IMG/VR virus record: IMGVR_UViG_3300029911_000010
Span: 40,428-104,427 of that record
DNA length: 64,000 nucleotides
Source: a virus
Reading direction: 5' to 3' (one strand)
The notes under the pieces are model-generated. The model was not told where the DNA came from. It made no database searches and saw nothing but the letters and a program-made list of their open reading frames with translations. A program made the position numbers and the translations under genes. Positions 8,111 to 42,055 of the stretch are shown in pieces. Positions within the stretch are counted from its first letter, which is position 1, and every line of letters begins with the position of its first letter.

Positions 8111-9595
8111 TCACATCACCTTATTCTGCCCGATAGCAAGGGACGCTGTCAAATGGAAGTCGTGGTCACTGGCTGCCATTCTGTACAAGGCAGCCAGTTT
8201 GTAAAGACCGTAGTCCTCGGCAAGTTCGCCGGCACCGGGTACGTCCGAAGCCGACTTTTCTAAAGTTGATTTGCATTCCGGGGTCGGCAAATGCCGCAAT
8301 TCGCACCGCATGGCACGCTCGGCAGCCGCATCCTGGGTCAACCCGTGAGACCCCTGGAGGTTGCGAGCAAGGGCTCTGATCGGTGTCGTGGCGACAGCGT
8401 CGGAACACGCATATTTGTTGAACGATAACCGGGCGTCAAACTTGGGATTCTGCGCAATCGTCGTGAAAATACCCGGCAGGCAGACCGAAGCCGCCTTGAC
8501 AAGATCCGGTCGGCTGGTCCAACGGGCAAAGTCGGCCAGGGTCAACATCACCTTCTGATCAGCCAGGGCTCCCAATGACGCAGCAGCCTTTTCGCTGCCG
8601 GGCATGCCCAGCAAGGCCAGCTGCTCGTCGCTGATCGTTCCCTGCACGACAGGGTGGAAACTCTTGCGCACCGGCTCGGACGGCCGCATCCCTTGTTCCT
8701 GCCGGGCCAGCGCCATGGCCAGCTTGGTCTGCCCCATTAGCTTGGAATTCCAGTTGTAGGGAAAATCCTGGCTCAGACACACCGCCAGCGGCGCAGTGAC
8801 GTTAAGCATTTCAGCCATCTCGGCTCCGGGGATGAAATCCTGGTGACTGGCGGCTTTCTCCAGCCAGTCAGCCTTGGTGCCGTAGGCCGTGCGATCAGCC
8901 GGCCGAAACACGTCAGAAATGTCGAAAAACGATGGCGTCGGATTATCGACGTGCAGGATGTGTCCGTCGAAGGCGACCTTGGCCAGATTCTTGGAGCAGC
9001 CGCCGTACTTGCAGGTTCCCTCGGTGCAGTATTCCTCACGGGTGCGAGCCTTGTGCTGGCAGCCGCTGCAGACGTCAAAAGGCACCCGGCAAGCCATCGA
9101 GACTGCCAGGTCTTCGTCCTTAGCCAGCTTCTCCAGCTCTCGGCTGGCGACAAAGCCACCGTTGCGATCCGCCGCCGACTTCTCTCCGTTGAGCGCCGCC
9201 AGCAGCTCAACGCGGCTCATCGGCAGATTCATCGCCGACTTTTCCACCCGGCCGTAGCTTAGCCGTGGATCTTTGTTCTGGTGGTTGCGATACCAGCGGG
9301 CGTACTTCTCAAACGTATTGTGATAATCCTTGAGCGTCTGCTCGGTCCAACCGTCGCCGTTGCGATTAGGTCCCCACTTCTCGGTAGAGCCCATGGCCAG
9401 CAAGTGAACCGGCACTTCGTCCTTGGCAAACTTGATGGAGTCCAGGATGTCCAGGAACGCCGGAGCCGTAGCCCCGGCCAGCTTTATGAAGTCGCTGCGA
9501 TCGCTGCCGATCAGACCGCGACTGGAGACCTTGATCATCTGCGCAATGGGCTGGTCCCAATTCCATCCTGACGGGCTGAAAATCTTGATCATCAT
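8111..9595 (-). CDS. Prohead (capsid maturation) protease with Cys-rich insertion
   Basis: NRNGDGW, YRNHQNKD, VSMACRVPFDVCSGC, SFFDISDVFRPAD resemble HK97/herpes-type serine prohead protease motifs. Confidence 0.75.
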   Translation of the reverse strand: MMIKIFSPSGWNWDQPIAQMIKVSSRGLIGSDRSDFIKLAGATAPAFLDILDSIKFAKDEVPVHLLAMGSTEKWGPNRNGDGWTEQTLKDYHNTFEKYARWYRNHQNKDPRLSYGRVEKSAMNLPMSRVELLAALNGEKSAADRNGGFVASRELEKLAKDEDLAVSMACRVPFDVCSGCQHKARTREEYCTEGTCKYGGCSKNLAKVAFDGHILHVDNPTPSFFDISDVFRPADRTAYGTKADWLEKAASHQDFIPGAEMAEMLNVTAPLAVCLSQDFPYNWNSKLMGQTKLAMALARQEQGMRPSEPVRKSFHPVVQGTISDEQLALLGMPGSEKAAASLGALADQKVMLTLADFARWTSRPDLVKAASVCLPGIFTTIAQNPKFDARLSFNKYACSDAVATTPIRALARNLQGSHGLTQDAAAERAMRCELRHLPTPECKSTLEKSASDVPGAGELAEDYGLYKLAALYRMAASDHDFHLTASLAIGQNKVM

Positions 9596-9604
9596 CGACT
9601 CCTG

Positions 9605-11014
9605 CTATTGATGCTGACGGGCGGCGTGCAGCTTGTCCAGTATAGCCTGGGCTTCGGGATGTTCCTGCATGTACTGTTGATGTGACGCCAAAGTGGCATT
9701 GCGCTGTTGTACGTACGGATCGTAGCCTTTACCTAATAGCAACGGACCTGCCAGCGTCGCCGCAATCTGCGCTCCCGTACCGCCTCCACGACTCCACAGA
9801 CTGGGTTTCGCAAGACCACGGCCAGCTGATAAAACACCAGGCAGAGCTTCACCGTGAATACCGAGCGGCAGCTCGGCATTAACGTTTGCCATAATATCAG
9901 TCGGGAACGGGCTCTTGGGGTCGGCGGCCAAACGTTGCACGGTATTCAGAATGCCGGCTGACTGAGGCGTCGGCGCAGCCGGACCGGTAGCCATGTGGTC
10001 GTTGAACAGCCGGTGAAAAGCGTCTGCTCGGGTGGCGTAGTCTGGCATGTTCGATCCCGAACCAACGCCGCCTTGCTGTTCGTGATCATACAGATCACGG
10101 AGAAACTGCGTAGCACTGGCGACGTGGTTGGCCCGCGTCTGCCCAGTCGAGTTGGCCAGCATCGTTGATTTGGACATATCGCCCAGCCCGTGCGATGCAG
10201 CTGTGTCTTGCAGCAATTTGGTCTGCTCTGGCGTGAATTTAGAGTAGTCGCTCACCGGTGAGCTGGGATTCATGGCCCGAATTGCCGCAAGCTGCACGTT
10301 ACGACCGCCATCTACGAGCGTCTTATAAACGGCAGGCGGTACTTTGCCTTCAATACCTTTCATGAACGCGTCGGTGTTGACCATTGAGTCTATGCCGCCT
10401 CTTAGCCCCAGCCAGTCAACACCCTTATGCAAGTTGTTCATGGCCGCGTTGTAGGCCGGGCGACCGACTAGATTCCAGCTGGCAAGACCGCCGATACCTA
10501 AACCCACGTTAGATCCGGCGTTGCTGATCATGTCGTTAAGACCACGCGGAAAATCAGTCATTAGCTTGACGGCGTTGGAGTGCCCTTGCCAGGCTGCGTC
10601 CTGTTGTGCGTTGTTGAGTTCCTGGGCTTGCTGCAAATTCTTCGTGGCTGAACCATCCGGCGGGTTCATGTAATTGCCCAGCTGCTTCAAGCCGTAATGC
10701 AGACCGCCGCCGATGGCACCGCCGGCCAAAGCTCCGGTCAAGGCGCTGCGCCACGGATGCTTTTCGCGTCCGGGCTCGTCGTTCATGTAGTCGCTGGCCA
10801 TGCCAATGCCGCCGCCGATGCCGGCACCCGCCAGACCAGCCAGCAGTGAATCGCCACCGACAGCGTACGGATTTGCCGGTGCTGCCGGTGCTGCCGGTGC
10901 TGCCGCACCGGTCTTTTTCAGGCCGGCCTTTTTAACCATCCGGACGGCGCAGGCTCGCTTGGCCAGAATGTCGCTGGCTTCCTTGACGGTCATGTTTTTT
11001 AAGTCAAGCGGCAT
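9605..11014 (-). CDS. Glycine-zipper putative internal virion/ejection protein
   Basis: GLAGAGIGGGIG and GALAGGAIGGGL; N-terminal KEAS, KRAC, KKAG, KTG. Confidence 0.55.
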   Translation of the reverse strand: MPLDLKNMTVKEASDILAKRACAVRMVKKAGLKKTGAAAPAAPAAPANPYAVGGDSLLAGLAGAGIGGGIGMASDYMNDEPGREKHPWRSALTGALAGGAIGGGLHYGLKQLGNYMNPPDGSATKNLQQAQELNNAQQDAAWQGHSNAVKLMTDFPRGLNDMISNAGSNVGLGIGGLASWNLVGRPAYNAAMNNLHKGVDWLGLRGGIDSMVNTDAFMKGIEGKVPPAVYKTLVDGGRNVQLAAIRAMNPSSPVSDYSKFTPEQTKLLQDTAASHGLGDMSKSTMLANSTGQTRANHVASATQFLRDLYDHEQQGGVGSGSNMPDYATRADAFHRLFNDHMATGPAAPTPQSAGILNTVQRLAADPKSPFPTDIMANVNAELPLGIHGEALPGVLSAGRGLAKPSLWSRGGGTGAQIAATLAGPLLLGKGYDPYVQQRNATLASHQQYMQEHPEAQAILDKLHAARQHQ

Positions 11015-11020
11015 CTGATC

Positions 11021-12427
11021 CTACTTTTTGACGTTGCCCGGCTGCGGAGCTGCCGGCTTAGGCATCGGGTCAACAGGAGCCGGCTGGGTATCCTTGAGAC
11101 CTTTTTCAAGATCCAGCATCTGCCCGTGCTCGAACGGTTGGACGTTGCCCTGGAGATATCGCTGCAGATGCGAACGCATGAGCGCCGGCTGAGAAGCGGC
11201 ACGGGGCGTAAGCCGCGAGATCTCGTTATAGGCGTGCAGCACTTCGTCGGGTTCATGACCACCGATCACGGGATCATTCATCATGTCAGACAGCATCGAC
11301 TGTGTCTGAATCTGCTGCAGCTTGGCGGCATGCCTGGGATCTTCCAGTTCTTCATAGGGTCCGGCTACTGGATCACCGGACTCCTGCTTAAAAGGGTTGA
11401 GAACTTCTCCAAACAGATTCTTGGCGTCGCTGACCATGTCCATCAGCTTGATCGGCGTGGCTGCCGACTTAGTCAATAGATTGAACGACGCGTCCTTGAC
11501 TGGTCCGTGAATCAGCGGACCCAGGATATCCTGCTTGTGGATTTCGGCCGCCGTCTTGGCGGCGGCTTCCGCATTGCGAAACTGGATGACGTCCTTGGCC
11601 AGCTTGACGCAGCGGGTCAGCGCCGACCAGGGCATCTGTTGCGGCTCGACGGCGACGACCTGCTTGCCCCAGTTGACGCTGTCGCCTCGAAGCGAGTTCT
11701 CGGCCATCTTGTTACGAGTGAATACCCAGTCCATCACCGCCTGGCCGTTGGCACCGTGATAAACTTCGGCGGTTTTTTCCACCAGGGCGAAAGGCAAATG
11801 CCGCTCCGGCGACTGACGGAAGTAGTCACCTAGTTCGCCCATGGCTCCGATCAGCTTCTGGTAAGCGTCGCTGGCGTTGACGCGGGCGTCAGCCGCCTGC
11901 TTGGTCAACTTCTCGTCCAGACCCATCGCCAGCGACAATGCCGACTTCTTGGGACACGTGCAATGCTCCATCGGACGATGGCATTCTTTGCAGTGGTCAG
12001 CCGTCTTGAGCAGGCCGGCCACCTGGATTGAAGCCGCCTTGATCATCGACACGTTCGGCTGGCGGAGATTGTGATCAAGGAAGAACGCCGGGCCACTGCC
12101 ATACTCGTTTGACACGGTGGCGTAAGCCTCGTCGGCTGCCGTCTTGACCTGCTTGGGCCAGATGCGATCGATTACCTGGTCGGGATCTGCCAGGGGAAAG
12201 TCGGCGAACTTTTCCAGGGCATTGTCGTTCTCCTGCCGCTGGTAAGTCTGCCGCCCGGTGTTGTAGGCGTACGATGCAAAGCGAACCATGTCCGGACCCC
12301 AGCTGGAGTCGCGGGCGATCTTCTCGATCGCATCGACAGGAGACATCTCGTCTTCATCGACCAAGGTCACTGCTTGCTTGACGGCAAGAATGACTTTGTT
12401 TTCAGCTTCCTTGCTGAGCGTCTGCAT
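11021..12427 (-). CDS. K-x-A-rich putative virion protein
   Basis: More than 10 K-x-A motifs; SD in hairpin UGGUC-AGGAG-GACCA. Confidence 0.6.
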   Translation of the reverse strand: MQTLSKEAENKVILAVKQAVTLVDEDEMSPVDAIEKIARDSSWGPDMVRFASYAYNTGRQTYQRQENDNALEKFADFPLADPDQVIDRIWPKQVKTAADEAYATVSNEYGSGPAFFLDHNLRQPNVSMIKAASIQVAGLLKTADHCKECHRPMEHCTCPKKSALSLAMGLDEKLTKQAADARVNASDAYQKLIGAMGELGDYFRQSPERHLPFALVEKTAEVYHGANGQAVMDWVFTRNKMAENSLRGDSVNWGKQVVAVEPQQMPWSALTRCVKLAKDVIQFRNAEAAAKTAAEIHKQDILGPLIHGPVKDASFNLLTKSAATPIKLMDMVSDAKNLFGEVLNPFKQESGDPVAGPYEELEDPRHAAKLQQIQTQSMLSDMMNDPVIGGHEPDEVLHAYNEISRLTPRAASQPALMRSHLQRYLQGNVQPFEHGQMLDLEKGLKDTQPAPVDPMPKPAAPQPGNVKK

Positions 12428-14724: not shown

Positions 14725-17451
14725 TCAGTCTCCAGATTCTTCCATATCTGGGTCTTGTATTTCGTCGAGTCGTGGCTCGATTGTCTTCTCCTTTAGGAAT
14801 AACACTATATCTGCGAGGCTTTCAAAGGCATTTCGCAGCGAATCTTCCATCTCCGGCAAAGAATTTTTGCCATACCGCTCCTTGAAATCATCTTGATGCC
14901 AGTAAAAAAGGAAGAGCAACCGGCCCAGCTTGTCGACGGCTTTCATCAGGTCAGGCAAGTGGCGGTCCACCAGCGAGTCCTGCCGCACCGACTTGAGCAT
15001 GCCGGAGATCATCGAAGTGTCGAACACCTCTTTCTGCCCTTCCTGGCCGGCTTGCTGGGCAGTCTGCACCGCCTTCTGGTCGGGCATCAGGAATGGATCA
15101 TAGATCCGAGGATCAGTCTGCGAGCTGTCCAACCCCGACACCGGCACATGCTCGCTCTGGGGATAGATGGCGTTGACTGAATTGTAGCCGACCTGTTCAC
15201 TACCGTACTCGGGAGCCGGCATGACTGGGGCGTAGGGGCCACCGGACTGCAGATCGCCGCTGGGATAGTAGCCTGCGGTCTTTTCTCGCGGATAGCTCTT
15301 GGCGTATACGACGCGGTACTGCACCGGCGATCCGCTCATGCCGTTGCTGTGAACCTGGGCTTGCTTGAGCATCGCGGCTGCTTCGCTTTCGCCGAGCCCG
15401 TGATCGCGAATCAGACAGAACAGACCATGCCGCCACGGCATGCGCTCGCAGCCTCGCTTGATGGTCTGAATGGACACTTCGCTGTGATCGCCCCACATCT
15501 TCATGGACGCGGTCTTGGTGGTGAACAGCAGTTGAATGTCACCGATGTCGCCGGGGACGATCGGCTTGGGGTCTGAGCCGTCTGAGTCCCAACCAACCGG
15601 GCCGCCGATACTGCTCTTGCTGGGACCGTCGCCGTCGTCTTTCTTGGGCTTGGGCGGATCTTTGAGCTTCATGAACTTGAAAGTATCGGGCACGTGCAAC
15701 GTGCCGGCAGCCGCCCGCAACTTGGTGCCGGGGCGGTCGTTGATCACTAGCAAAGCATCGTAGTTGCTGACATAGCCGCCGTCGCCGGAATAGGACGAAG
15801 GCTCAGTCACCTTGGGCAAACCGCTGGCACGCCCGGCTTTCCAGTCCTCGTAGCCCTTGAAGTCGACCTTGTAACGCTTGTCCTCGTAAACCTTGCTGAC
15901 AACAAACGGGACAGTGCCCTCTCCGGCCTGGTTGATCGCCAGGTAGGTGCCGCCCTTGGACAACGTCTCGGAGTTGCCCAGACCTTTGAACCATTCGCGG
16001 AAATCGTTCTCCGACTCGATTGTTTTGGTCCACAACGACGTGCGGTGACCGTTAAGCCACGACTTCTCGCCGTCGCCCAATCGCACCACCGTACAAAAGT
16101 TCTTTTGCCCGTCGTTGGCACTGGGGGCCTGGACCACCAGCATGCGGCCGAATTCGCCGGGCTTCTCCAGCACTTCGTAGATGCCGGTCTCGTGCGGATT
16201 TGTCAGTTCCGTTCGCACTTGAGTGTTGTACGCATGGCTGATTTCGTCGCCCTTGCGCTCGTCCTTGACCAGATAGCCGTGGTGCAGGAGCTTTTCTTTA
16301 TCCTTCTCGGGAAGTTCCTTGTTGACCGTGAGGCTGACATCCGGGTCAGTGAGAATCTTGACCTTGGGCTTCTTGTCATCTTCGGGCGGCTGGGCTTCCT
16401 TAAGCAGCGAAAAATCCAGTTCACTTCGCGGCTTGTTCGGCGCAATGCGGGTTTCCCACTCGGCTCCTTTGATCAGGCAGTTGGCGGCTTCCTCGGCTGC
16501 CTGCTTGATTCGCAGGCCGACGCGATGGAAGAAATCGCTGCCATAGAACTTATCGAAGGCGACCTTGATGCCGGGGTAGCGCTGGGAGATGTTGTAGGCT
16601 CCTTCCAGCAGGCTGACATCGGTCGCCAGGAAGTCTTCCAGCGACAGTGGGACGTCGGCTAAGGCCGCCTTGACGGGGCTGGCGGGCAGCTTGCTGACGT
16701 CAACTTTGCGATCGGCCGGGGCGTTGGGCCATAGGAAGTTGGCTTGCTTGGTGGCAATGGCCGCCAGCAACGGCAGCGCCGGCACCGCCCAACCGGCCAC
16801 GTCGCGATTGCCGACGCGGATGTAATCCGGCAGCGGTGATTCCGCAGACCGACCTTCGCGGGCGGCAGCAGCTTTGGCCTGTAGTCGCTCCAGAGCACTG
16901 CCGTATTTGTTGTGCGGCGGCGGATAGCTGAGACGTTCGATGTTGGGGGCAATGCCGCCCAGCTGCCAGGTATCCTTGGCCGAGCCTTCGCCCAGGACGT
17001 GCGGCTTGCGGCTGAGGATGTAGTTGACCCAGTTTTCCTTCATGGGCACGAAGGAGTCCTGATTCTTGATATACAAAAGCTCGTGGCCCTTGAGATCACC
17101 GTTGAGGAAGAAGATCGGGGCGTACAGCCACTGCTTGCCGATCTTGAAGCCGAACACGCCGACAGCCTTGGTGTTGTCGTCGTTGCGGTCGACCAGCTGG
17201 AAGCCGACGATGTAGTCGATCAGGCGGGGAGCCTTATCCTTGAGATAGGCATACCCAAGTGAAGAGAAGGATTGCTCAAAGCCCTGCTCCTGCTCGCCGC
17301 CGATGCTCGCCCATTTGATGCCGGGACCCTTGGCCAGTCCGCGAATGTGCATGACCAGCTGCAGCGGTGTCGCGTCGCTGGTGTAAAATTGACCGGCATC
17401 CGTAGCGTGCTTGATGAACGTAATGTGCTTCCGTGCAGTTGTAATTGCCAT
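14725..17451 (-). CDS. Large putative virion protein
   Basis: 908 aa with K-x-A motifs (KHAT, KWAS, KQAN, KAAL, KQAA, KGAE, KEAQ, KTAS, KTAG). Confidence 0.65.
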   Translation of the reverse strand: MAITTARKHITFIKHATDAGQFYTSDATPLQLVMHIRGLAKGPGIKWASIGGEQEQGFEQSFSSLGYAYLKDKAPRLIDYIVGFQLVDRNDDNTKAVGVFGFKIGKQWLYAPIFFLNGDLKGHELLYIKNQDSFVPMKENWVNYILSRKPHVLGEGSAKDTWQLGGIAPNIERLSYPPPHNKYGSALERLQAKAAAAREGRSAESPLPDYIRVGNRDVAGWAVPALPLLAAIATKQANFLWPNAPADRKVDVSKLPASPVKAALADVPLSLEDFLATDVSLLEGAYNISQRYPGIKVAFDKFYGSDFFHRVGLRIKQAAEEAANCLIKGAEWETRIAPNKPRSELDFSLLKEAQPPEDDKKPKVKILTDPDVSLTVNKELPEKDKEKLLHHGYLVKDERKGDEISHAYNTQVRTELTNPHETGIYEVLEKPGEFGRMLVVQAPSANDGQKNFCTVVRLGDGEKSWLNGHRTSLWTKTIESENDFREWFKGLGNSETLSKGGTYLAINQAGEGTVPFVVSKVYEDKRYKVDFKGYEDWKAGRASGLPKVTEPSSYSGDGGYVSNYDALLVINDRPGTKLRAAAGTLHVPDTFKFMKLKDPPKPKKDDGDGPSKSSIGGPVGWDSDGSDPKPIVPGDIGDIQLLFTTKTASMKMWGDHSEVSIQTIKRGCERMPWRHGLFCLIRDHGLGESEAAAMLKQAQVHSNGMSGSPVQYRVVYAKSYPREKTAGYYPSGDLQSGGPYAPVMPAPEYGSEQVGYNSVNAIYPQSEHVPVSGLDSSQTDPRIYDPFLMPDQKAVQTAQQAGQEGQKEVFDTSMISGMLKSVRQDSLVDRHLPDLMKAVDKLGRLLFLFYWHQDDFKERYGKNSLPEMEDSLRNAFESLADIVLFLKEKTIEPRLDEIQDPDMEESGD

Positions 17452-32525: not shown

Positions 32526-32945
32526 TTAGAACATCGGACGCCCGGTGATCGATTTGGGTTTCGTCTGACGACGAATCACGCCTTCTCTGCGGGATCGTGC
32601 GGCTTCGCGGCCGTAAGCCTCGATCAACTCGTTGTTCTTGGCTTCGTCGACGTCCTGGTCGCTAATGTCCTGCGCCTTGGCCGCCAGATGACCAATGCCG
32701 GCTCCGAGCAGCGGCGGTGCCGCCAGGGCGAGCGGGATGCCCCATGACAATGCCGTATTGGCCAGACCGGTGGCACCGTTCCAGGCACTGCCCAACATCG
32801 GCATAAGACCCTCAGCCTGCTTGACCGGTGCGTCCAGGGCGGCTTCCGCCTGCTTGACCGCAGTCAGCATCTCGCCCGGCGTGGTCAGTCCATTGTCGAT
32901 GCACTTGAGCATGAAGCCGAACTTGAAAGCTTGTCTGTCGTCCAT
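32526..32945 (-). CDS. Small putative internal virion protein
   Basis: Start at ATG 32945 (AAGGAG); FKFGFMLKC; KQAE x2; hydrophobic helix. Confidence 0.55.
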   Translation of the reverse strand: MDDRQAFKFGFMLKCIDNGLTTPGEMLTAVKQAEAALDAPVKQAEGLMPMLGSAWNGATGLANTALSWGIPLALAAPPLLGAGIGHLAAKAQDISDQDVDEAKNNELIEAYGREAARSRREGVIRRQTKPKSITGRPMF

Positions 32946-32955
32946 GTGAATCTCC

Positions 32956-33366
32956 TTACCAGGCAATGTCCTTGAGGCCGGGAACAACGGTGCGGCTGCT
33001 GCGCTTTTCCCGAATCTCCCTGACCATCTGCTTAACGTGCCGCTTGTCGTCAGGCATGCCCTGACGCTTGGCCTTTTCGCACAATGCGATCATAGCGTCA
33101 ATGTAGCCGCGATACGCGGTCATCTCGCTGGGATGGTTCCATCCCTTGCCGGTGCGATGATTGCCGATCATGTCGTTGATGCCTTTCAATCGAATCAGGC
33201 AATCCTGGACGGTCATCGAGCCGTACTTTTCATCGTCCCGACCGGTGGCGTCCAGATCGTTCCAGTGAATCAACCCGCCCTCAGCCCACCACAAGTGCAT
33301 GTGAGCGTTTTCCTTGCATGGGTCCTTGAAACGAACCGCATCCGAACTAAGCAAAATGGCCGACAT
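32956..33366 (-). CDS. Hypothetical protein
   Basis: GGAG SD; 136 aa. Confidence 0.55.
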   Translation of the reverse strand: MSAILLSSDAVRFKDPCKENAHMHLWWAEGGLIHWNDLDATGRDDEKYGSMTVQDCLIRLKGINDMIGNHRTGKGWNHPSEMTAYRGYIDAMIALCEKAKRQGMPDDKRHVKQMVREIREKRSSRTVVPGLKDIAW

Positions 33367-33729: not shown

Positions 33730-34899
33730 CTATCCAAACAACCTGGGTAGAACGGCTTTTACGATACCGAGGTAAACCCCGGTTTGCTTCAAGACATCCT
33801 GTGCGGACTCGGGCATGCCGGTCAACAACCCAAGCGTATTGCCGACCAGTGCGCCAGAAACGTATCCAGCGCCCATGTGCGCAGCTAAATTCGCCATCTG
33901 TACTGGAGTAACCCAGCTTGATCCTTCTTCTCCGCTTCTGCCGCCAGGCATCTGCCGAGCCGCCATCAAAGCCCCCATCGTCGCCCCGGCCAGCTGTGGG
34001 CTGGCCCCGATATCCCACAAAGTCTGCCCCAGTGAGTTGATGTTCACGTCCATGGGCGTCGGTCCCGGACGCGTGGCTGCTTCCCAGGGCATTGTCAGCG
34101 TGTCAAACGCCTCCTTGATGTGCTGCGTCGGCCAGGTAGCCTGCAGGTACGCCGCCACTGCCTGCTTATGCCATTGTCCGGGCTCAGGCAAAAGATCAAT
34201 GTCGGATGCTGCTTTCCAGTTAATGTCAGGCGGGCCGCCTGGTGGAGCATACAACAGCGAATTGTCGTTTAGAGGCTTGCCGGCCGCATGGTTGGCTGCC
34301 ATCCAGGCACCACCGGGAACGGCTCCGGCCAGCCCGCCGACTGCCGCCAGCGTATTTTTCAAACGTCCGCGACGCCAACTGTCAGGCAGGCGGGATTCAA
34401 TCAGCGAGCCGGCACCGTAGCCCAGGCCAGCGCCGACCAGGCCGCTGGTGAGCATTGCCCGCACCGGGCTGGGGTTCATGCCGGTGAACTGCATCTTATC
34501 GGCATCGAAATGCGGGAAGAATCCCGCCCATTCGCCAGCAGTGCGCAGCGCCGGGCTGTAAGCAATCTTGACCCAGCCTTCATCTTCGAGCACCAGTCCG
34601 CTTTTCATCGTCGGCGACCAGACAAATCCCTCATCCGGCACGTCAGCTACGTCGGCCATGGCGGATTTGAGCAATGCAACGTCACGCGCCGGTGATTCAT
34701 CCGGCACATAGAAAGCCACCTTGTGTGTGTCCGGATGCAGGTAGATGCCGATCGGCATGGAAGTATAAACGCCGGAAATGGCACCGCGAATGCCGTCAGC
34801 TTCCGCCGCCAGCTTCTCAGCCGTCGCAATCGCGTCACGGCCGACGCGATACCACGCTGTCATTTGTTCCACGGTGAGAAGAGGTTGTTCGACCTCCAT
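33730..34899 (-). CDS. Glycine-zipper putative internal virion protein
   Basis: KLAA, KSAM, KIAY, KAAS, KQAV, KEAF; several GxxxG helices. Confidence 0.55.
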   Translation of the reverse strand: MEVEQPLLTVEQMTAWYRVGRDAIATAEKLAAEADGIRGAISGVYTSMPIGIYLHPDTHKVAFYVPDESPARDVALLKSAMADVADVPDEGFVWSPTMKSGLVLEDEGWVKIAYSPALRTAGEWAGFFPHFDADKMQFTGMNPSPVRAMLTSGLVGAGLGYGAGSLIESRLPDSWRRGRLKNTLAAVGGLAGAVPGGAWMAANHAAGKPLNDNSLLYAPPGGPPDINWKAASDIDLLPEPGQWHKQAVAAYLQATWPTQHIKEAFDTLTMPWEAATRPGPTPMDVNINSLGQTLWDIGASPQLAGATMGALMAARQMPGGRSGEEGSSWVTPVQMANLAAHMGAGYVSGALVGNTLGLLTGMPESAQDVLKQTGVYLGIVKAVLPRLFG

Positions 34900-35051: not shown

Positions 35052-38000
35052 TCACATGATACAGGAATCGCCGCTGCAAGCCAGCTCCTTGCGGACATTG
35101 GTGTGGTCGATGCCGTGCTCGTATCGCGGAAGCTTCTCCCACTCAATCTTGGGGAAGTTCGCGGTGAAGTCGGCAAACTGCTCAGGTGTCAACGGCGTGA
35201 AGGGAGCCTGGGGGTAAACGCCGCCATCAAGCGGCAGGAAAGCCAGGCCACCAACATCTTCCCAGTGAGCGTATACCCATCCGGCCACCTGCGGCCATTC
35301 GTCATCGCCGACGTAAATGGTCACGGACGGATTGTGCTCGGTGTAATGCTTCTTGAACGCCAGCCAGTCTTCCAGCTGACACATGGCGCTGCGGCGGCTC
35401 TTGGTCGCTACCACCTTGCCGCTGACATCAGTCACCAGATCGCTGACCACCATCGAGCCCTCGGGGGCTTTAAGCGGAAAGCTGAAAATAGTCGTGCCCG
35501 GATCACGGTAGCAGACTTCGTGCGGCACGCCCTGATCCTTAAGGAAGCGGCACATGGGGTTGATGTTGCCTACTTCGACGTTGCGGATCATGTGCTGAGC
35601 CAGCCAGCCGCCCATGCTCTGACCGACGCCGTAGCGGGCACCGGAGTTGCCACCAGGCTTGATGCAGGTGACAGCGTTGGACGGGTTGATGCCCAACCGC
35701 TTGGCCCACACACGGTTCTCCGACAGCGCTGTCTGCTTGAGGTGTTCCAACAGACGATGACGATCGGGATTGGAATCACGCAGCAGAGGAGAATCCAAAG
35801 CGCCCAGCAAGTCGACACCCAGCAGTCGCTCGGCTTCGCAGTTTTCCTTCCAGCGAGGCCGCAGATAACTGAAATCAGTCATGGTCGACTGAATGGTGCC
35901 GAAGATGGCAGCCAGCCGCACCTTGCGTTCCAGGATTACTCCGGTGTCCGTAGGCCGCACGATGGGAATCGACAGGTTACAGAACTGCCCATCGGGATGC
36001 AGGATGACTTCACCGCAATTCGACACCAGCATTCCGCCAGTCCAATAGGTGTGCTCGTCGGCGGCGACTGTGATGTCCCACACCGGCTGCGAACCCTCAT
36101 CCGAGATACTGATAATTTCGAAGCTGTGTTTTCTGGTCGGCTGCTCGGTAAGCGCAGCTTGATTCGCCTTTTCCTGTTTGTAGCCCTGCACGAACCCGAT
36201 CATCGTGGCGAACCTGCCCTTGCCCGTCGTGATGTTCAGATCGTAGCTCTCGCGGCATTCGTAAGTGCCGTTGTCAAAACGAACCGCTTTGGCAGCTTTG
36301 GGCGTGTAGTACGACGGGATGCCAAGACCAGACAGCATCTCCTGTACATCAGAGATTATCTTAAAAGACGTCGCCTTGAGTATGACTCGTCCCCCACACA
36401 CCGATCCATTGGCCGAATACAAGCCACGGAGAAATCCACGGATCTTTAATTCGTCGCCGTGTTTGAATCGGGCCGGTACAGATCGCAGGTAGGTATAGGG
36501 CAGCTCGGCGGCCGTTACCGTCGCATCTTCTCCGATCGCGTAAGCGTGACTGCGAATACCCGGACGGTGCGAGAGGTGACTCGGAAAGCGGTCAAGTACG
36601 TCGCCATCATTTTCCCCGACGCAGAGATAAATGAGGTTGTCAGAAGCGGCGTGGACCGAGCCGTCGCCAATCAGTAGACCATCCAGCACGTCGCGGTCGC
36701 ACGGCAGGGATTGCAATCCTAAGTAGCTGGCATCGTCCCGAGTGATGGGACCGACGCAGCGGTCGATCGTCTCAGCATCCTGTGCCTCGATCTTTTCACC
36801 GTGGCTGACAACGCGGTGGTTTTCAGTCCCGAGGAAGAATCCGGCCGTGGTCTGGTAGCGGAATACCGGCTTGACCCCGGTGTAGACCTTACGAGTCACT
36901 TCTGACCAGTGTTTACCTGTCCAGATCACGTCTCCTGTTTTCAGCTCGCCCATCGTGCGAATGCCGTCACGAGTCAATACCGTTGCATTGGCAGGCTGAC
37001 AGGGATTGGTGCCCCAGAGAACGTCAAAGAATGAATCCCCGTACTGGTCGATACGTCGCTGGGGCATCTGCCGAGCCAACCCGCCTCGGTTAAAGATCCC
37101 ACGTTCGCCGCTCTTGGATATCACCAGCGACAACCATTCAGCCAGAAAGACGTGAGCCTCGGGCTTCTCGTCGTACACCGCCGAGTTGTTGGACATGGCC
37201 CGTTGAACGTACAGCGGGTTCTCCCAGTATTTGCCGAACTTGGCTTCCCGCATCAACTGGCTTTTGAGATTGGACAGGCTGATCAGCGCTGCCCGCCGCA
37301 CCCCGCCTAGCTGCCCCACCTGGCCGATGTAGCACATCGAATCATGCACGTCGATGTCACGCAGACGTTTGCCCTCGCGAGCCCGGAAGAGACGGCGGAT
37401 GGCCGTATGCAAATCCGACAGCGGCTTGGGTCCGCTGGCCCGCCCGCCCTTGGTCATCAGCCGAGAACCCTCGGGGCGAATCTCGTGATACTTGATGTCC
37501 AGATCGTAGCCCTCGTAAAGCCGGTACATCAGATGCTTAACGCTGTCACACCAACCCTCAGTAGCGTCGGGCACCACGAACACGTCGGGTACGCTGTTAC
37601 GACGCCGGCGCTGAATACGCGGTAGCTGCTCGACGAATTCACTCTCACACGAGAAACCGCAGCCGGCCCCGGCCATGGAGATGTACAGGTTCTCGGCGAA
37701 GTAGTCGACATCCCTGATACCGGAGTAGCTGCAGTTGTAGATGCCGACGTTGCAGCGGGTCGCCGCCGGCCCGGCCATCTGCATCAACCGCATGCTGGGG
37801 GTGGCTTCCTCGTTGATGATGGAATCCCGCAGCATCTGATAGTCCCCCGCTTCCAATGTGGGCATGCCGTGCTTGCGCAGGTGATACTGGATGAAACCCA
37901 TCACGCGGTCGGTAGATTCGGGATAAGTCTCACGCCGCTTGAAGTCGTCGTTGAAGCGAGCGTACTTGTCGTAGTGCTGGAATCGCTGCAGATCGGTGGT

Positions 38001-38405
38001 GCCCCTGGTTTCGCACAGCCGGGTTTCCTCGCGGATCGCCTCGACCGCCTCGTCGGTGACGCCGGCCAGCGCCGACGCCTCGCGGATCTTACGCCGCTCA
38101 TCACGGAAGAGAACGTACTTGCGTCCCGCGTCGGCTTCGCCAACGGCAAACAACGCCTCTTCCACGAAATTCTGAATTGCCTCGACAGCAATAGTTCCTC
38201 CGATAGATGCGATCAACCGTTCGACACGATCGGTTACCTTCGCGGCCAGCGCCCTCGTGTCGTCATCGAGCGCTCGACCACAATCGTTGACCAGACAAAG
38301 CATGACCACCTGGGTGATCTTACTGCGTTGGTATGTGACCAAATTGCCGGAACGTTTGCGTACCTGTAAAGCTGCAGGCACAACAGTAGAAATGCCAGTC
38401 GACAT
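35052..38405 (-). CDS. nrdJ: Class II (adenosylcobalamin-dependent) ribonucleotide reductase with ATP cone and intein
   Basis: VRKRSG ATP cone, PSMR, NCSY, GGVRRAALISL, GTNP|CGE, TCIKPGG, EHNPSVT, C-terminal CSGDSC; start re-called at ATG 38405. Confidence 0.9.
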   Translation of the reverse strand: MSTGISTVVPAALQVRKRSGNLVTYQRSKITQVVMLCLVNDCGRALDDDTRALAAKVTDRVERLIASIGGTIAVEAIQNFVEEALFAVGEADAGRKYVLFRDERRKIREASALAGVTDEAVEAIREETRLCETRGTTDLQRFQHYDKYARFNDDFKRRETYPESTDRVMGFIQYHLRKHGMPTLEAGDYQMLRDSIINEEATPSMRLMQMAGPAATRCNVGIYNCSYSGIRDVDYFAENLYISMAGAGCGFSCESEFVEQLPRIQRRRRNSVPDVFVVPDATEGWCDSVKHLMYRLYEGYDLDIKYHEIRPEGSRLMTKGGRASGPKPLSDLHTAIRRLFRAREGKRLRDIDVHDSMCYIGQVGQLGGVRRAALISLSNLKSQLMREAKFGKYWENPLYVQRAMSNNSAVYDEKPEAHVFLAEWLSLVISKSGERGIFNRGGLARQMPQRRIDQYGDSFFDVLWGTNPCQPANATVLTRDGIRTMGELKTGDVIWTGKHWSEVTRKVYTGVKPVFRYQTTAGFFLGTENHRVVSHGEKIEAQDAETIDRCVGPITRDDASYLGLQSLPCDRDVLDGLLIGDGSVHAASDNLIYLCVGENDGDVLDRFPSHLSHRPGIRSHAYAIGEDATVTAAELPYTYLRSVPARFKHGDELKIRGFLRGLYSANGSVCGGRVILKATSFKIISDVQEMLSGLGIPSYYTPKAAKAVRFDNGTYECRESYDLNITTGKGRFATMIGFVQGYKQEKANQAALTEQPTRKHSFEIISISDEGSQPVWDITVAADEHTYWTGGMLVSNCGEVILHPDGQFCNLSIPIVRPTDTGVILERKVRLAAIFGTIQSTMTDFSYLRPRWKENCEAERLLGVDLLGALDSPLLRDSNPDRHRLLEHLKQTALSENRVWAKRLGINPSNAVTCIKPGGNSGARYGVGQSMGGWLAQHMIRNVEVGNINPMCRFLKDQGVPHEVCYRDPGTTIFSFPLKAPEGSMVVSDLVTDVSGKVVATKSRRSAMCQLEDWLAFKKHYTEHNPSVTIYVGDDEWPQVAGWVYAHWEDVGGLAFLPLDGGVYPQAPFTPLTPEQFADFTANFPKIEWEKLPRYEHGIDHTNVRKELACSGDSCIM
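36018..37001 (-). mobile_element. Intein with LAGLIDADG endonuclease (328 aa) at the catalytic Cys
   Basis: GTNP|CQPANATVLT...VWDITV..EHTYWTGGMLVSN|CGEV; LDGLLIGDG and FLRGLYSANG. Confidence 0.9.
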
Positions 38406-38557
38406 GGACTGTCTCCAAAACGTCAAACTATATGTGCTCCCGCCAAACAGAAGCATCGTTTGCCGGGATGCAACTGTCTGAGCACACTAACCTAAGTGTG
38501 CATCCCTATTTTCGTATAATTCGTTTTCAAAATCAATACCTGAAAATTCGCTGAAAA

Positions 38558-38901: not shown

Positions 38902-41532
38902 TTAGATGTCCTCGTGGCGAGCTAAAAAAGAGGGGGCACGCAACGCCCCGCTGGCTAGTTGTTCCTGGGCACGAACGCGGGCGACACGGCCAATCCAGTC
39001 ATCTGGATTAGCTGCCATGTCAGCCAGAGTCGCGTCGTCAAAGCCAGTGCCGACCTTGCCGACCGGTTCACCACCAGGCTGCAAGCTGTACTGAAATCCG
39101 CCGACCGTGCTGGCCCGCCGGCCTTCGCCAGGGAAAAAACTGTGAATGTGAACATCGTGGTCCTCGGTCAGCTTGCTCTTCATCGGCTTGCCGTGCGTCG
39201 GATGGATCACCACACCTTCACGGGTCAGGGGATTCTTGCCACCGGCGATGTCCTGCCACATCTGCATCGCCTTGCCCGGCTCAGCCTCCTGGCTCAGGTG
39301 GAATCGCCCCGGAGCTGCTGCTTCAAGAAGCGGCAGAATCTCGCCCAGCATAGCACGACGCTCAGCGTAAGACGTTTGATCAAAGTCAACCGGATGCTTC
39401 CCGACTTGCTGGACGTCAAAGAGGGCGTTTCGCAGTTGTATTTTCCGATCTCTTTGCTGGGCAATGGCATTCGCGGGAGTGGCATTGAGGATGCCACCGA
39501 GTTCGGACGGGTGTATGGCTGTTTGCACAGTGTCGGATAGTAATGGGTCTCCCGGATTATCTGCCCCAGCTTCTCCGCCACCGGGCTTGTCGCCTTGTCT
39601 AACGCCGTAAAGTTCACCCCTGAGGACTGATCCAACCAGATTCGGCGGGGTTTGTATTGCTGGTCTGCCATGAAAGAACCTCTCCGTGTGTAAAATGGGC
39701 CGGCCTGTCTGCTTGCTCTGTCGGTAACTGGTCAGCTCCACGCCATCCTTGAGCAACTTGATCAAACTAGAAGCCCCGTCAATCTTAGCCTGCACGCTGG
39801 CAGCCGGATCTAACTTGGACAACGTCTGCTCGATCTGGTCGGCGGGGATCTTGGTGTAGTGAATCTTCTGATACGGCAGTGACTGCGACGGCGTGGTGTT
39901 GATCATCAGCCAATCACGGTCACGCTGGCCGTGCCACTTGGTCAGCATGAAGCGCTCGGGGTGCTTCTTGTCCATCCGCGTGAAGTGAATCTCACCGGGG
40001 GACACCTTGGTCAACATGATCTGGCCGCTGTCGTGTTTCTTAACAGAGCCGCCGCCGTAGCGCCCCAGGGGAATGTCGCCCTCGAAGTCCTTGTAGCCGT
40101 AGCGATGCACGGGCTGCTGCACCGCCAGGATGCGCTGGCCCGGCTCTGGAAGCTCATTGCGGGTCGCCCACGAGTACAAGCCGGTATCCGGGGTGCCGAA
40201 GCGAAAGTCGTAATGCGGGCCAGCCTTCTGCGCCAGGTGATGCTGGATAACCAAGTCGTGGTTCTGACCCGGCTGCAAGGCGTCCCAGTCGCCAAAGTTC
40301 TGCCGGCTGGGCAGGCCGGGAGCGGCGTCGGCTTTCTTCTCGTGCTTTTCTTCGTCGTCCGGCTCGTCTTCCTCCAGCTTGACGTCAGCCTCACGTCGCA
40401 TGATATCCGGCACGGGCGTCTTGGCCGGTACGTAGGGCTTGAATCCCAGCGACGTGTAGAACGCTGCTAACTCTGACGTGCCCAGCGCCTTGTCTTTGTA
40501 CGGGCCGACGTGCAGCTCCAGCGGCTTGTGGCCGTAGGCGTCCAGAACGTGTTCCATCAGCTTGCGAGCCAGTCCCTTTTCACGATGACGCGGCGAAACG
40601 TACAAACCCCTGATCCATCCGGCGTCGTGGCCGGGGACGTCCATTACAGCGACACCGCCGATCTCCCGTCCGTTGCGGGTGATGTCAAACCGGTGCTCGG
40701 GTCCGTGCTGAGCGAAGTTGTCCCGGTAGTCTCCGAAGCGATATTCTTCCGCAAAAGTTGATTTGCTTTTGTCAGCAGCCACTTTCTGGTTTCCGGCGTC
40801 GGCGAAATCTTCAAGGTCGAAAAGATCTGATCCGCCATCGGTTCCAGCTGGTCCACACTGCCTGCCATATCCGCTATCACCTGAGGGATGTACATCTGCA
40901 GCCTTCTTCCTGTATTTGGCGAACATGCCGTCTTCGATTTCACGCGTCGTGTCGGCGTGCTCCAGCCACCATTTGAACTGCGGCATCGTCAGTGAGTAGA
41001 TCGAACCCAGCCCCTTCCAGCCGTCCTCGTAGTTCTCCAAGTACAACCGGCGGGCCTGGTCCTCGTTGATAGCGCCGAAGATAACCTTGTGCTCGTCGAA
41101 GTCTTTGGTGCCGGGGTCAACCTGGTTGACGACGAACACCAGCTCGCAATGCGGGTGCTGATCGCCGATGAACACGTCGACATGATCCTTGTCCCGCCCC
41201 TCAGTGCCCAGGATGTAGCCATAGTGGCTTTTCATCTCCTGAGACCATTCCTTGCCGTCTCGGCTCTTGCCGCTGCGGGTGGAGCCCTTGGGATTTTCAA
41301 TGGAGATGGTCAGCCCGTGAATGTTGAGCTTGCCCTTGGCGTAGTTGCCCGCCTCACGCTGAGCTTCGGTAGGCTCGGTGTCAGTCTTGGCAGCGGCCCG
41401 GTCGATGCGATCCAGGTAATCCGCCAGCTCGCGATTGGCGTGCTGGGCCTGGTCCACCGTGGTATCGGGCACAACCGTTACGCGAATAATACGATGTGAA
41501 ACGCTCAGAATGCTGGTCGGCGAATCTTCCAT
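38902..41532 (-). CDS. Polyvalent protein: InPase-like + GNAT + LigD-type phosphoesterase + ATP-dependent DNA ligase
   Basis: GNY.KG...IENPKGS.R...YGYI..T.G.D.DHVDVFIG...DEHK; GLYVSPRHREKGLA; QHH.A...HYDFR..SWA..H..Y.FEG; KIDG, GELY, FDV, EGVV, GKVGTGF, LRAPSF. Confidence 0.85.
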   Translation of the reverse strand: MEDSPTSILSVSHRIIRVTVVPDTTVDQAQHANRELADYLDRIDRAAAKTDTEPTEAQREAGNYAKGKLNIHGLTISIENPKGSTRSGKSRDGKEWSQEMKSHYGYILGTEGRDKDHVDVFIGDQHPHCELVFVVNQVDPGTKDFDEHKVIFGAINEDQARRLYLENYEDGWKGLGSIYSLTMPQFKWWLEHADTTREIEDGMFAKYRKKAADVHPSGDSGYGRQCGPAGTDGGSDLFDLEDFADAGNQKVAADKSKSTFAEEYRFGDYRDNFAQHGPEHRFDITRNGREIGGVAVMDVPGHDAGWIRGLYVSPRHREKGLARKLMEHVLDAYGHKPLELHVGPYKDKALGTSELAAFYTSLGFKPYVPAKTPVPDIMRREADVKLEEDEPDDEEKHEKKADAAPGLPSRQNFGDWDALQPGQNHDLVIQHHLAQKAGPHYDFRFGTPDTGLYSWATRNELPEPGQRILAVQQPVHRYGYKDFEGDIPLGRYGGGSVKKHDSGQIMLTKVSPGEIHFTRMDKKHPERFMLTKWHGQRDRDWLMINTTPSQSLPYQKIHYTKIPADQIEQTLSKLDPAASVQAKIDGASSLIKLLKDGVELTSYRQSKQTGRPILHTERFFHGRPAIQTPPNLVGSVLRGELYGVRQGDKPGGGEAGADNPGDPLLSDTVQTAIHPSELGGILNATPANAIAQQRDRKIQLRNALFDVQQVGKHPVDFDQTSYAERRAMLGEILPLLEAAAPGRFHLSQEAEPGKAMQMWQDIAGGKNPLTREGVVIHPTHGKPMKSKLTEDHDVHIHSFFPGEGRRASTVGGFQYSLQPGGEPVGKVGTGFDDATLADMAANPDDWIGRVARVRAQEQLASGALRAPSFLARHEDI

Positions 41533-41626: not shown

Positions 41627-42055
41627 ATGCTAGTTCTCAGTCGCAAGCGTGACCAGGCCGTCCGAATCGGAAAAGACATTCGCGTCATGGTCACCGACAT
41701 TCGCGGTGACAAAGTTCGTATCGGTACGAACGCTCCACCGTGCTACAGAGTGTACCGCAAAGAGATCTACGATGGAATCCTCAGGGAAATCGCAGCCGGC
41801 GGCAGCCCTCCGGAAGAGCGGATCAAGTCCGGCGCTGGCCAATTGGTGCTAAGCCGCCAGCGTGACGAAAAGCTGTACGTCATCGATCCGGCCGACTGGA
41901 ATAAGCCCCTGGTCAGCATCACGGTAGTGGATATTCGCGGCGATAAGATACGTCTCGGCTTTGAGGCAGACAGATCGCTTGACGTGGACCGCGAGGAGGT
42001 CTATAAGTTGAAATCAGCCGGAGCCGATGCGAAAGCAGGCCAAACGGCGGTCTGA
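41627..42055 (+). CDS. csrA: Tandem two-domain CsrA/RsmA translational regulator
   Basis: MLVLSRK...IG.DI.V.V..IRGDKVRIG..AP....V.R.EI, then a second QLVLSRQ...ITVVDIRGDKIRLGFEA.....V.REEV; AAGGAG SD. Confidence 0.92.
   Translation: MLVLSRKRDQAVRIGKDIRVMVTDIRGDKVRIGTNAPPCYRVYRKEIYDGILREIAAGGSPPEERIKSGAGQLVLSRQRDEKLYVIDPADWNKPLVSITVVDIRGDKIRLGFEADRSLDVDREEVYKLKSAGADAKAGQTAV

Follow-up and report, generated by a model that had tools for sequence, protein, structure and literature searches.

A four-enzyme phage protein with K-x-A motifs at its module borders: a candidate cargo polyprotein of a gp21-like prohead protease

Why should a phage join four unrelated enzymes in a single polypeptide, and is that polypeptide cut apart again before it is used? 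The question is raised by an 876-aa protein encoded in IMG/VR virus record IMGVR_UViG_3300029911_000010, within a 64,000-nucleotide window (positions 40,428 to 104,427) that forms the last 64 kb of the 104-kb contig. CheckV completeness of the contig is 47%, from which the phage genome size is about 220 kb. A preliminary description of the window, made from the sequence alone, had read the open reading frame (ORF) as a virion-packaged polyprotein, divided by K-x-A motifs into an InPase-like domain, a GNAT acetyltransferase, and a LigD-type 3'-phosphoesterase (PE) joined to an ATP-dependent DNA ligase, and delivered with the DNA so as to repair or circularize it and to counter nucleases. Here, we describe the domains of this protein, its relatives, and a candidate for the protease that would act on it. 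With modest confidence, we favor a polyvalent cargo polyprotein that would be cut by the prohead protease at K-x-A, packaged, and ejected with the DNA.

Four catalytic domains and the motifs between them

The ORF is genuine (Table 1), and the identical 876-aa protein is recorded on 10 contigs, the longest of which is 183.5 kb. All four catalytic domains named in the preliminary description were found with Pfam and PHROGs profiles. The GNAT domain also gave a weak PDB match to the RimI-type enzyme 5isv. The PE domain matched solved LigD-type PE structures (3p43, 3p4h, and 3n9b), and its residues H432, H440, D442, R444, and H476 are invariant across the family, with Y480 nearly invariant.

The ligase is divergent. 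Pfam ligase models scored below their cut-offs on this region, a phmmer search of the PDB matched it to no ligase, and a family profile searched against the PDB found DNA ligases only, at E values of 3e-5 or weaker. An AlphaFold2 (AF2) model of the polyprotein, built on 36 sequences, reached predicted local distance difference test scores (pLDDT) above 90 across most of residues 405 to 876. The top Foldseek matches of this model were exclusively ATP-dependent DNA ligases (E values down to 1.7e-13), comprising archaeal ligases, human LigI, LigIII, and LigIV, T4 ligase, Lig E, and the LIG domains of LigD (1vs0, 6nhx), with no RNA ligase among the top 50 structural matches. Within the family, K583 (the motif I lysine), D585, G586, E640, E772, G773, and K785 are invariant, and K787 is nearly so. 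The identification as a ligase is supported by this structural similarity together with the invariant nucleotidyltransferase residues.

The lack of a polymerase domain, also part of the preliminary description, was borne out: the 876-aa protein has no Pfam match to one, and neither LigD_Prim-Pol nor Ku (PF02735) was found in the record (47% complete) or in any of five complete related genomes. This is therefore not a nonhomologous end-joining (NHEJ) system, and the protein carries a PE-ligase pair, not an NHEJ LigD. Bacterial LigD, whose domain order is PE-LIG-POL in Pseudomonas and POL-PE-LIG in Mycobacterium, is similar in that a PE domain with the His/His/Asp/Arg/His/Tyr set and an ATP-dependent ligase share one chain, in the order PE then LIG. 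Unlike LigD, the protein described here has no primase-polymerase and no Ku partner, is phage encoded, has a very divergent ligase, and is fused to InPase and GNAT domains with flanking K-x-A motifs. No peptidase family was found among its Pfam or PHROG matches.

The three K-x-A motifs (lysine, any residue, alanine; counted below as the spaced pair K.A) lie exactly where they had been placed, and they coincide with the module borders. Together with an overlapping KAA at 210, they are the only K.A of the protein; all fall within the interdomain segments 192 to 261 and 368 to 429, and no Pfam domain contains one. Their number is ordinary (about 4.3 expected from composition). In the AF2 model, pLDDT is below 50 at residues 213 to 264 and 365 to 404, across the linkers that hold K.A, and the third motif stands just ahead of the rise in confidence into the PE domain. 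PE and ligase are predicted to stay fused, because no K-x-A separates them. The protein stops at H-E-D-I, the point at which longer relatives go on with K-x-A. Residues 212 to 252 look like a degenerate copy of the leader-like spacers that are flanked by two K-x-A motifs in homologues.

Table 1. Coordinates of the polyprotein, its parts, and the other genes discussed, numbered from the first letter of the window
Feature	Position	Strand	Details
Whole ORF (P0001)	38902..41532	-	ATG start, 876 aa; InPase - GNAT - LigD-type PE - ATP-dependent DNA ligase polyvalent protein
N-terminal leader-like region, aa 1-37	41422..41532	-	ends R-E-L-A; pLDDT <50 at aa 1-22
InPase domain (PF18823), aa 56-191	40960..41367	-	E 1.3e-54, full profile length
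K-K-A, aa 209-211, first putative site, C-terminal edge of InPase module	40900..40908	-	motif scan, AF2 model
Spacer, aa 212-249	40786..40899	-	acidic, disordered (pLDDT 25-45), ends D-L-F-D-L-E-D-F-A-D-A-G-N-Q before K-V-A
K-V-A, aa 250-252, second putative site, 12 residues before first GNAT strand	40777..40785	-	disordered linker
GNAT acetyltransferase domain, aa 262-367	40432..40749	-	PF13508 42.4 bits, PF00583 40.3 bits, both above cut-offs
K-K-A, aa 399-401, third putative site	40330..40338	-	in register with family K-x-[ASG] preceding G-[IL]-P-[DS]-R PE start
LigD-type 3'-phosphoesterase (PE, LigD_N, PF13298), aa 430-531	39940..40245	-	53.9 bits
ATP-dependent DNA ligase (nucleotidyltransferase and OB domains), aa 553-875	38908..39876	-	phrog_114, E 1.9e-16
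Tandem CsrA-like gene	41627..42055	+	divergent from polyprotein ORF, 94-bp spacer
2H-SAK phosphoesterase, separate gene, 183 aa	42206..42757	-	PF22547; leader begins M-S-V-L-S-P, ends E-K-I-A at aa 22-25
Prohead protease candidate, 494 aa	8111..9595	-	N-terminal ~230 aa with T4 gp21/assemblin fold (AF2 model), helical C-terminal half
Major capsid protein, 312 aa	4614..5552	-	phrog_2522; single K-Q-A at aa 29-31; leader begins M-V-Q-L-S-P-E-E

K-x-A in the protein family, the candidate protease, and the capsid protein

Relatives were collected with residues 400 to 876 as the query, which returned 556 proteins at an E value of ≤0.001. The best 120 of these 556 are 43 to 59% identical to the query over the PE-ligase module, and their sources include contigs of 195 to 235 kb. 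At least 15 kinds of partner domain occur around the PE-ligase core, either before or after it; they include 2H-SAK phosphoesterase, InPase, SNF2 helicase, NUDIX, C39-like peptidases (in some relatives), GH24 lysozyme with LysM, P-loop kinases, uracil-DNA glycosylase, SET, histidine phosphatase, GNAT, and inteins. The largest family member has 2,977 residues.

Across this variety the motif keeps its place. In the 37 fused proteins in which the PE start could be anchored on conserved G-[IL]-P-D-R, K.[ASG] was present within the 14 residues upstream in 36, compared with 5 of 37 in a control window 20 residues further upstream and 17 of 37 after composition-preserving shuffles. K.A is the commonest spaced pair there (30, versus 8 for the reverse pair A.K). 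Proteins that begin with the module start M-P-x-x-A-x-G-I-P-D-R, without lysine. At the other end of the core, 73 of the 84 proteins that continue past the ligase end (H-E-D-Y) have K.[ASG] within 17 residues of it, versus 26 in the control window. Most fused homologues carry an N-terminal leader of 10 to 35 residues that ends in K-x-A right before the first domain, the InPase domain of homologues is followed by F/Y-x-K-x-[ASG], and the spacers after internal sites are often leader-like (S-V-L-x-P-E ... E-L-x-x-L-G-I-x-K-x-A) and flanked by two sites. The site consensus across the family is [L/M/F]-[E]-K-x-[A 70%, G/S 30%]-[A/D/E/S].

The modules themselves present the opposite picture. In a Pfam-mapped subset of ten proteins, nearly all K.A lie outside annotated domains, most of them at a border. 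Of 302 spaced pairs counted inside the modules, only one is more strongly depleted than K.A (41 observed versus 251 expected, about 6-fold); K.S and K.G fall about 2-fold short of expectation, and R.A exceeds it. Lysine seems to have been replaced by arginine before x-A.

In relatives, the polyprotein gene adjoins the gene of a K.A-rich protein or the head module. In six related loci, the polyprotein gene is followed directly by a homologue of a K.A-rich 389-residue protein. In one complete 224-kb genome, it stands directly before homologues of the 908-, 359-, and 468-residue head-block proteins, and in another related genome it lies two genes from head-block homologues. The 2H-SAK gene of the window (Table 1) is the counterpart of the first module in many fused homologues. 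As this gene is separate here and fused in relatives, the same kit appears to be split differently, with gene ends that fall at the putative cleavage sites.

Several side observations concern the same family. A stand-alone PE-ligase subclass (P0033, P0035, P0041, P0051, P0056, P0070, P0081, and P0120) has neither a leader nor flanking K-x-A and shares a conserved C-terminal domain of about 90 aa (L-x-Q-A-K-x-E-S-D ... T-H-K-P-T-G-F). In one related locus (L027:7965-10529), a 272-aa ORF separates the two ORFs over which the PE-ligase core is divided, two relatives (P0083 and P0092) carry intein Pfam families, and another (P0015) carries the LAGLIDADG family PF03161. The PE-ligase core seems to be a target of mobile elements in some relatives.

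A candidate for a protease that would cut at K-x-A was found among a few proteins of one block of the genome in which K.A is strongly enriched. Such proteins are encoded at 8111-9595 (14 K.A observed versus 3.7 expected), 11021-12427 (16 versus 4.0), 14725-17451 (12 versus 5.6), and 33730-34899 (7 versus 1.9). The 8111-9595 protein has more than 800 homologues of about 495 residues and is a core protein of the clade. Neither Pfam nor PHROGs gave a match for it or for the scaffold-like proteins, and phmmer against the PDB gave none for the protease candidate. Its AF2 model was built from 35 homologues (mean pLDDT, 80.6). An exhaustive structural search with this model ranked T4 gp21 (5jbl) first (Z score, 10.4; root mean square deviation, 3.0; 145 of 165 residues), followed by varicella-zoster (Z score, 5.9) and cytomegalovirus protease (Z score, 4.3), with unrelated folds lower. 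Foldseek returned the same fold (probability, 0.9; template modeling [TM] score, 0.65 by target) at a weak E value of 0.33. The identification rests on the VIA-align Z score of 10.4 and the target-normalized TM score of 0.65, and these models make the gene a candidate for a prohead protease of the gp21/assemblin fold.

Within the family of this candidate, no other spaced pair of the 363 is as enriched as K.A (1,903 observed versus 489 expected, 3.9-fold), and its occurrences fall at about 15 conserved positions. Such a pattern would be expected of a maturation protease that digests itself. The helical C-terminal half of the protein may be a fused scaffold. The candidate also has invariant cysteines (C169, C176, C179, C190, C195, and C200), a cluster that suggests a metal site; we know of no metal site of this kind in gp21.

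The capsid protein carries the motif as well. All 120 of 120 capsid-protein homologues have at least one K.A, and 155 of the 168 occurrences fall at aa 10 to 35, typically as L-E-K-Q-A followed by V-D. This N-terminal L-E-K-Q-A predicts a propeptide of about 30 residues. The capsid leader resembles that of the 2H-SAK gene (M-S-V-L-S-P ... E-K-I-A) and those of many polyprotein homologues. The capsid family is 77 to 95% identical across more than 100 metagenomic sources, Tara ocean samples included. Elsewhere in the window, Gly-zipper or membrane-like proteins (9605-11014, 33730-34899, and 32526-32987, all minus strand) have their K.A clustered in the N-terminal parts.

Proteases of the gp21/assemblin fold read a P3-x-P1 pattern, which is L/I-x-E in T4, S/A/G-x-E in phiKZ and SPN3US, and V/L/I-x-A|S in herpesviruses. 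K-x-A fits this geometry, with a new P3. No published description of K-x-A as such a motif was found in a literature check that was not exhaustive.

Packaging and cleavage weighed against other readings

The proposed polyprotein organization draws strong comparative support from the in-register motif, the split-gene ends, the gp21/assemblin-fold protease, and the K-x-A of the capsid protein. We infer cleavage, cutting by the prohead protease, a location in the prohead, and ejection of the fragments; the pointers to packaging are indirect, namely the shared K-x-A code, the leaders, the synteny with head genes, and the virion location of InPase domains elsewhere. On the favored reading, K-x-A would be the cleavage code (P3 Lys, P1 Ala) of the gp21/assemblin-fold prohead protease, which would also trim the N-terminal leader of the capsid protein and digest itself. 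The polyprotein would be taken into the prohead and cut after each Ala into InPase with the leader (aa 1 to 211, about 23 kDa), a 41-aa spacer, GNAT (aa 253 to 401, about 16 kDa), and PE-ligase (aa 402 to 876, about 53 kDa), and these pieces would be ejected with the DNA. The preliminary description was right, then, about the four domains, the missing polymerase, the motifs at the borders, and the predicted InPase, GNAT, and PE-ligase products; its CsrA-type loop did not hold up (see below).

What the pieces would do in the cell is more speculative. PE would turn 3'-phosphate or 3'-ribonucleotide ends into 3'-OH, and the ligase would seal the nick. GNAT might act on some small-molecule or protein target. 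The pyrophosphatase would pull ligase adenylylation forward and, should the phage co-package an RNA polymerase, would do likewise for that enzyme; this idea draws on a general proposal by Iyer et al., in which InPase serves nucleotidyltransferases by removing pyrophosphate (PMC5512222).

The protein resembles the polyvalent proteins described by Iyer, Burroughs, Anand, de Souza, and Aravind in 2017 in that several unrelated enzyme domains (here InPase, GNAT, PE, and ligase) share one phage polypeptide, architectures are shuffled, and the hallmark InPase is present (PMC5512222). In that work, InPase was found to associate with GNAT and NUDIX, and polyvalent proteins, those with InPase included, were predicted to be packaged and processed into separate units (PMC5512222). 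The difference lies in the means: an in-built zincin-like metallopeptidase, typical of the class and not obligatory, was proposed there (PMC5512222), whereas the protein described here has no peptidase domain and carries a short K-x-A code common to the capsid protein and the prohead protease. The text of Iyer et al. does not contain "LigD," and according to it no polyvalent protein was ever found to combine a 2H domain with an RNA ligase (PMC5512222); the PE-DNA-ligase core is therefore not described there.

Prohead-protease substrates that are packaged and ejected offer a second comparison; they include Alt and the internal proteins of T4 (gp21, L/I-x-E) and the ejection proteins of phiKZ and SPN3US (S/A/G-x-E) (PMC5694885, PMC7411985, PMC10052503). 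In both cases the protease is of the gp21/assemblin fold, known here from models, and the motif is a three-residue P3-x-P1 pattern. In common with the T4, phiKZ, and SPN3US substrates, the motif occurs in the capsid protein, scaffold-like proteins, the protease, and cargo enzymes, and in most homologues short N-terminal leaders end in it; the leader-like N terminus of the protein described here has R-E-L-A at that place. Unlike in those phages, the motif here is K-x-A, with a basic P3 and not x-x-E; its P1 Ala is as in the V/L/I-x-A|S of herpesvirus assemblin. The putative sites also part several enzymes of one polyprotein, in contrast to the removal of a single propeptide.

In cultured phages, InPase domains may be fused to portal or MuF proteins, and the proteins that contain them carry annotations such as virion structural, internal head, minor head, DarB-like, or portal. 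The domain matches aa 636 to 761 of the portal protein gp19 of Pseudomonas phage Pa193 (PDB 9b41; E value, 1.1e-29), so that the same InPase family is a physical part of a virion protein there; in the Pa193 structure, only residues 94 to 528 were built and the InPase part was not resolved in the map (PMC11456595). InPase is a C-terminal appendage in Pa193 gp19, unlike the first module of a free polyprotein here. Among cultured phages, Salmonella phage Arash comes closest in its capsid protein (29% identity) and protease (40% over 222 residues), with a head module that is distantly related. This region of Arash (L028, OQ632216.1:141693-160580) encodes the protease homologue as gp222 and K.A-rich proteins as gp220, gp223, and gp225. 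The N terminus of gp223 reads M-S-V-L-S, followed by K-Q-A at 24 to 26, and the capsid protein gp226 has V-K-E-A at 26 to 29. Mass spectrometry of Arash virions reported RNA polymerase subunits, pyrophosphatase, phosphoesterase, and RNA ligases, which by the authors' account could be carry-over (PMC10585845).

Several findings weigh against packaging and cleavage as proposed. The polyprotein gene of this genome adjoins ribonucleotide reductase and csrA, not head genes. R-E-L-A (aa 34 to 37) stands where InPase-first homologues have E-K-L-A; the N-terminal leader of this protein may stay attached, the site being degenerate, or targeting may differ. Because the homologues share ancestry, their motifs cannot be counted as independent events. 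Leaderless stand-alone modules, tried as a control for motif avoidance in the expectation that they would have no K.A depletion, proved equally depleted (6 observed versus 35 expected) and did not discriminate; part of the K.A depletion may thus be inherited, not selected. More distant members keep K.A inside the module; loci of this kind had been expected to lack the protease, but the 144-kb relative among them has it. No phage of the INPHARED collection has the PE-ligase module, which leaves the clade without a cultured member there, and Arash has no homologue of the 876-aa polyprotein. The choice between DNA and RNA as substrate is more speculative: the ligase fold says DNA, and the 2H and kinase partners seen in relatives would be as much in keeping with RNA repair as with DNA repair.

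Some of these points would sit well with a polyprotein cut at K-x-A in the cytoplasm, by the same or another protease, whose products act in replication and are not injected, cleavage being a means to obtain several enzymes from a single gene: the gene lies in nucleotide-metabolism and regulatory surroundings, its own N-terminal leader is without K-x-A, and stand-alone PE-ligases without leader or motif occur. We regard this reading as improbable. Proteases of the gp21/assemblin type act within procapsids on head components (T4, phiKZ, and SPN3US), the motif and M-S-V-L-x-P-type leaders recur in the capsid protein and in the K.A-rich proteins of the head module, InPase domains of cultured phages are virion components, and the gene adjoins head-module genes in relatives. 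Still less credence is given to an uncleaved multidomain enzyme with four tethered activities, in which K-x-A would be a conserved linker feature (for instance, a docking or packaging signal to which scaffold or protease binds and does not cut, or a lysine-modification site). Genes are split at or near motif positions (this ORF stops at H-E-D-I, the 2H gene ends close to the corresponding site, and stand-alone modules start right behind it), the motif is avoided inside folded PE-ligase modules, with K apparently replaced by R before x-A, it is enriched at about 15 conserved positions of the protease family, as for self-digestion, and its spacing with P1 Ala matches the P3-x-P1 logic of gp21/assemblin proteases. 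In favor of an intact enzyme, LigD itself functions as a fused multidomain enzyme, and some polyvalent proteins, the N4 virion RNA polymerase among them, are packaged unprocessed (PMC5512222).

A further reading concerns the substrate and is compatible with packaging and cleavage: the PE-ligase core, with 2H domains and kinases, would heal and seal tRNA or other RNA cut by anticodon nucleases or ribotoxins. Fusion partners of the core include 2H-SAK phosphoesterases and P-loop kinases in many relatives, and a leader-bearing 2H-SAK gene sits 670 bp upstream of the polyprotein ORF. Pfam names that 2H family after "Swiss Army Knife" proteins, a term that reportedly comes from an RNA-repair survey by Burroughs and Aravind in 2016. 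An RNA-repair kit nevertheless seems rather unlikely to us, as the sealing enzyme has the fold, the motifs, and the OB domain of an ATP-dependent DNA ligase, every PDB profile match is a DNA ligase, RNA ligases are missing from the top 50 structural matches, the PE domain is of the LigD DNA-repair type, and the SNF2 helicase and uracil-DNA glycosylase partners point to DNA.

Neighboring genes and meaning for the phage lineage

The CsrA-like gene, the sole plus-strand gene of the neighborhood, is divergent from the polyprotein gene, as had been described. The CsrA profile matched its product in two stretches, which indicates tandem domains in one chain. The preliminary description had also placed the start codon of the polyprotein in a CsrA-type loop, and this was rejected: the fold of the 137-nt leader is no better than that of shuffled sequences (z, -0.96), and GGA motifs are common genome-wide. 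In the minimum-energy fold of the leader, the A and U of the AUG are paired within a 5-bp stem. Two GGA motifs near the start are also found in 20 of 87 genes (23%) of this genome, and NUGGA is found in 13%.

On the other side, a ribonucleotide reductase gene with an apparent intein (35052-38456, minus strand) stands between the polyprotein gene and that of the 389-residue protein in this genome. Its product has 1,134 aa versus a profile of 701 positions, and the surplus resembles an intein that follows N-P-C and closes with S-N ahead of C-G-E-V. A terminator-like GC hairpin with a T-run (38933-38949, minus strand) lies within the last ~15 codons of the polyprotein ORF, not past its stop; it is probably a chance occurrence, as 5 such sites were found versus 3.4 expected in shuffles.

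Beyond this one genome, we tentatively propose a widespread, uncultured clade of phages of about 140 to 235 kb that would have the K-x-A code, a gp21-like prohead protease, and injected cassette polyproteins, in which interchangeable enzyme modules bordered by K-x-A and leader-like spacers would be built around a PE-DNA-ligase core; we hold this wider proposal with less confidence than that for the polyprotein itself. Homologues of the capsid protein of this clade number more than 1,500 in public data. Under the clade-wide proposal, fusion, fission, and module swapping would allow the set of mature injected enzymes to be reassorted freely. New here are the identification of the protease by structure, the test of K-x-A in the capsid family, and its statistics at junctions across the polyprotein family, and Arash could be used as a laboratory model for the K-x-A code.

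If true, the proposal would provide a readable cleavage code for a large, uncultured, globally distributed phage lineage and would make the capsid-internal proteome of hundreds of metagenomic genomes predictable from sequence alone. It would also be the first case found in which phage polyvalent proteins have a LigD-type unit for end healing and sealing as their constant core, and it would point to repair of nicks or breaks in the incoming genome, or in host-cleaved nucleic acid, as an immediate-early need of these phages. A polyprotein cut at every module border would represent a natural modular cargo design, relevant to counter-defense and to the engineering of phage-delivered enzymes.

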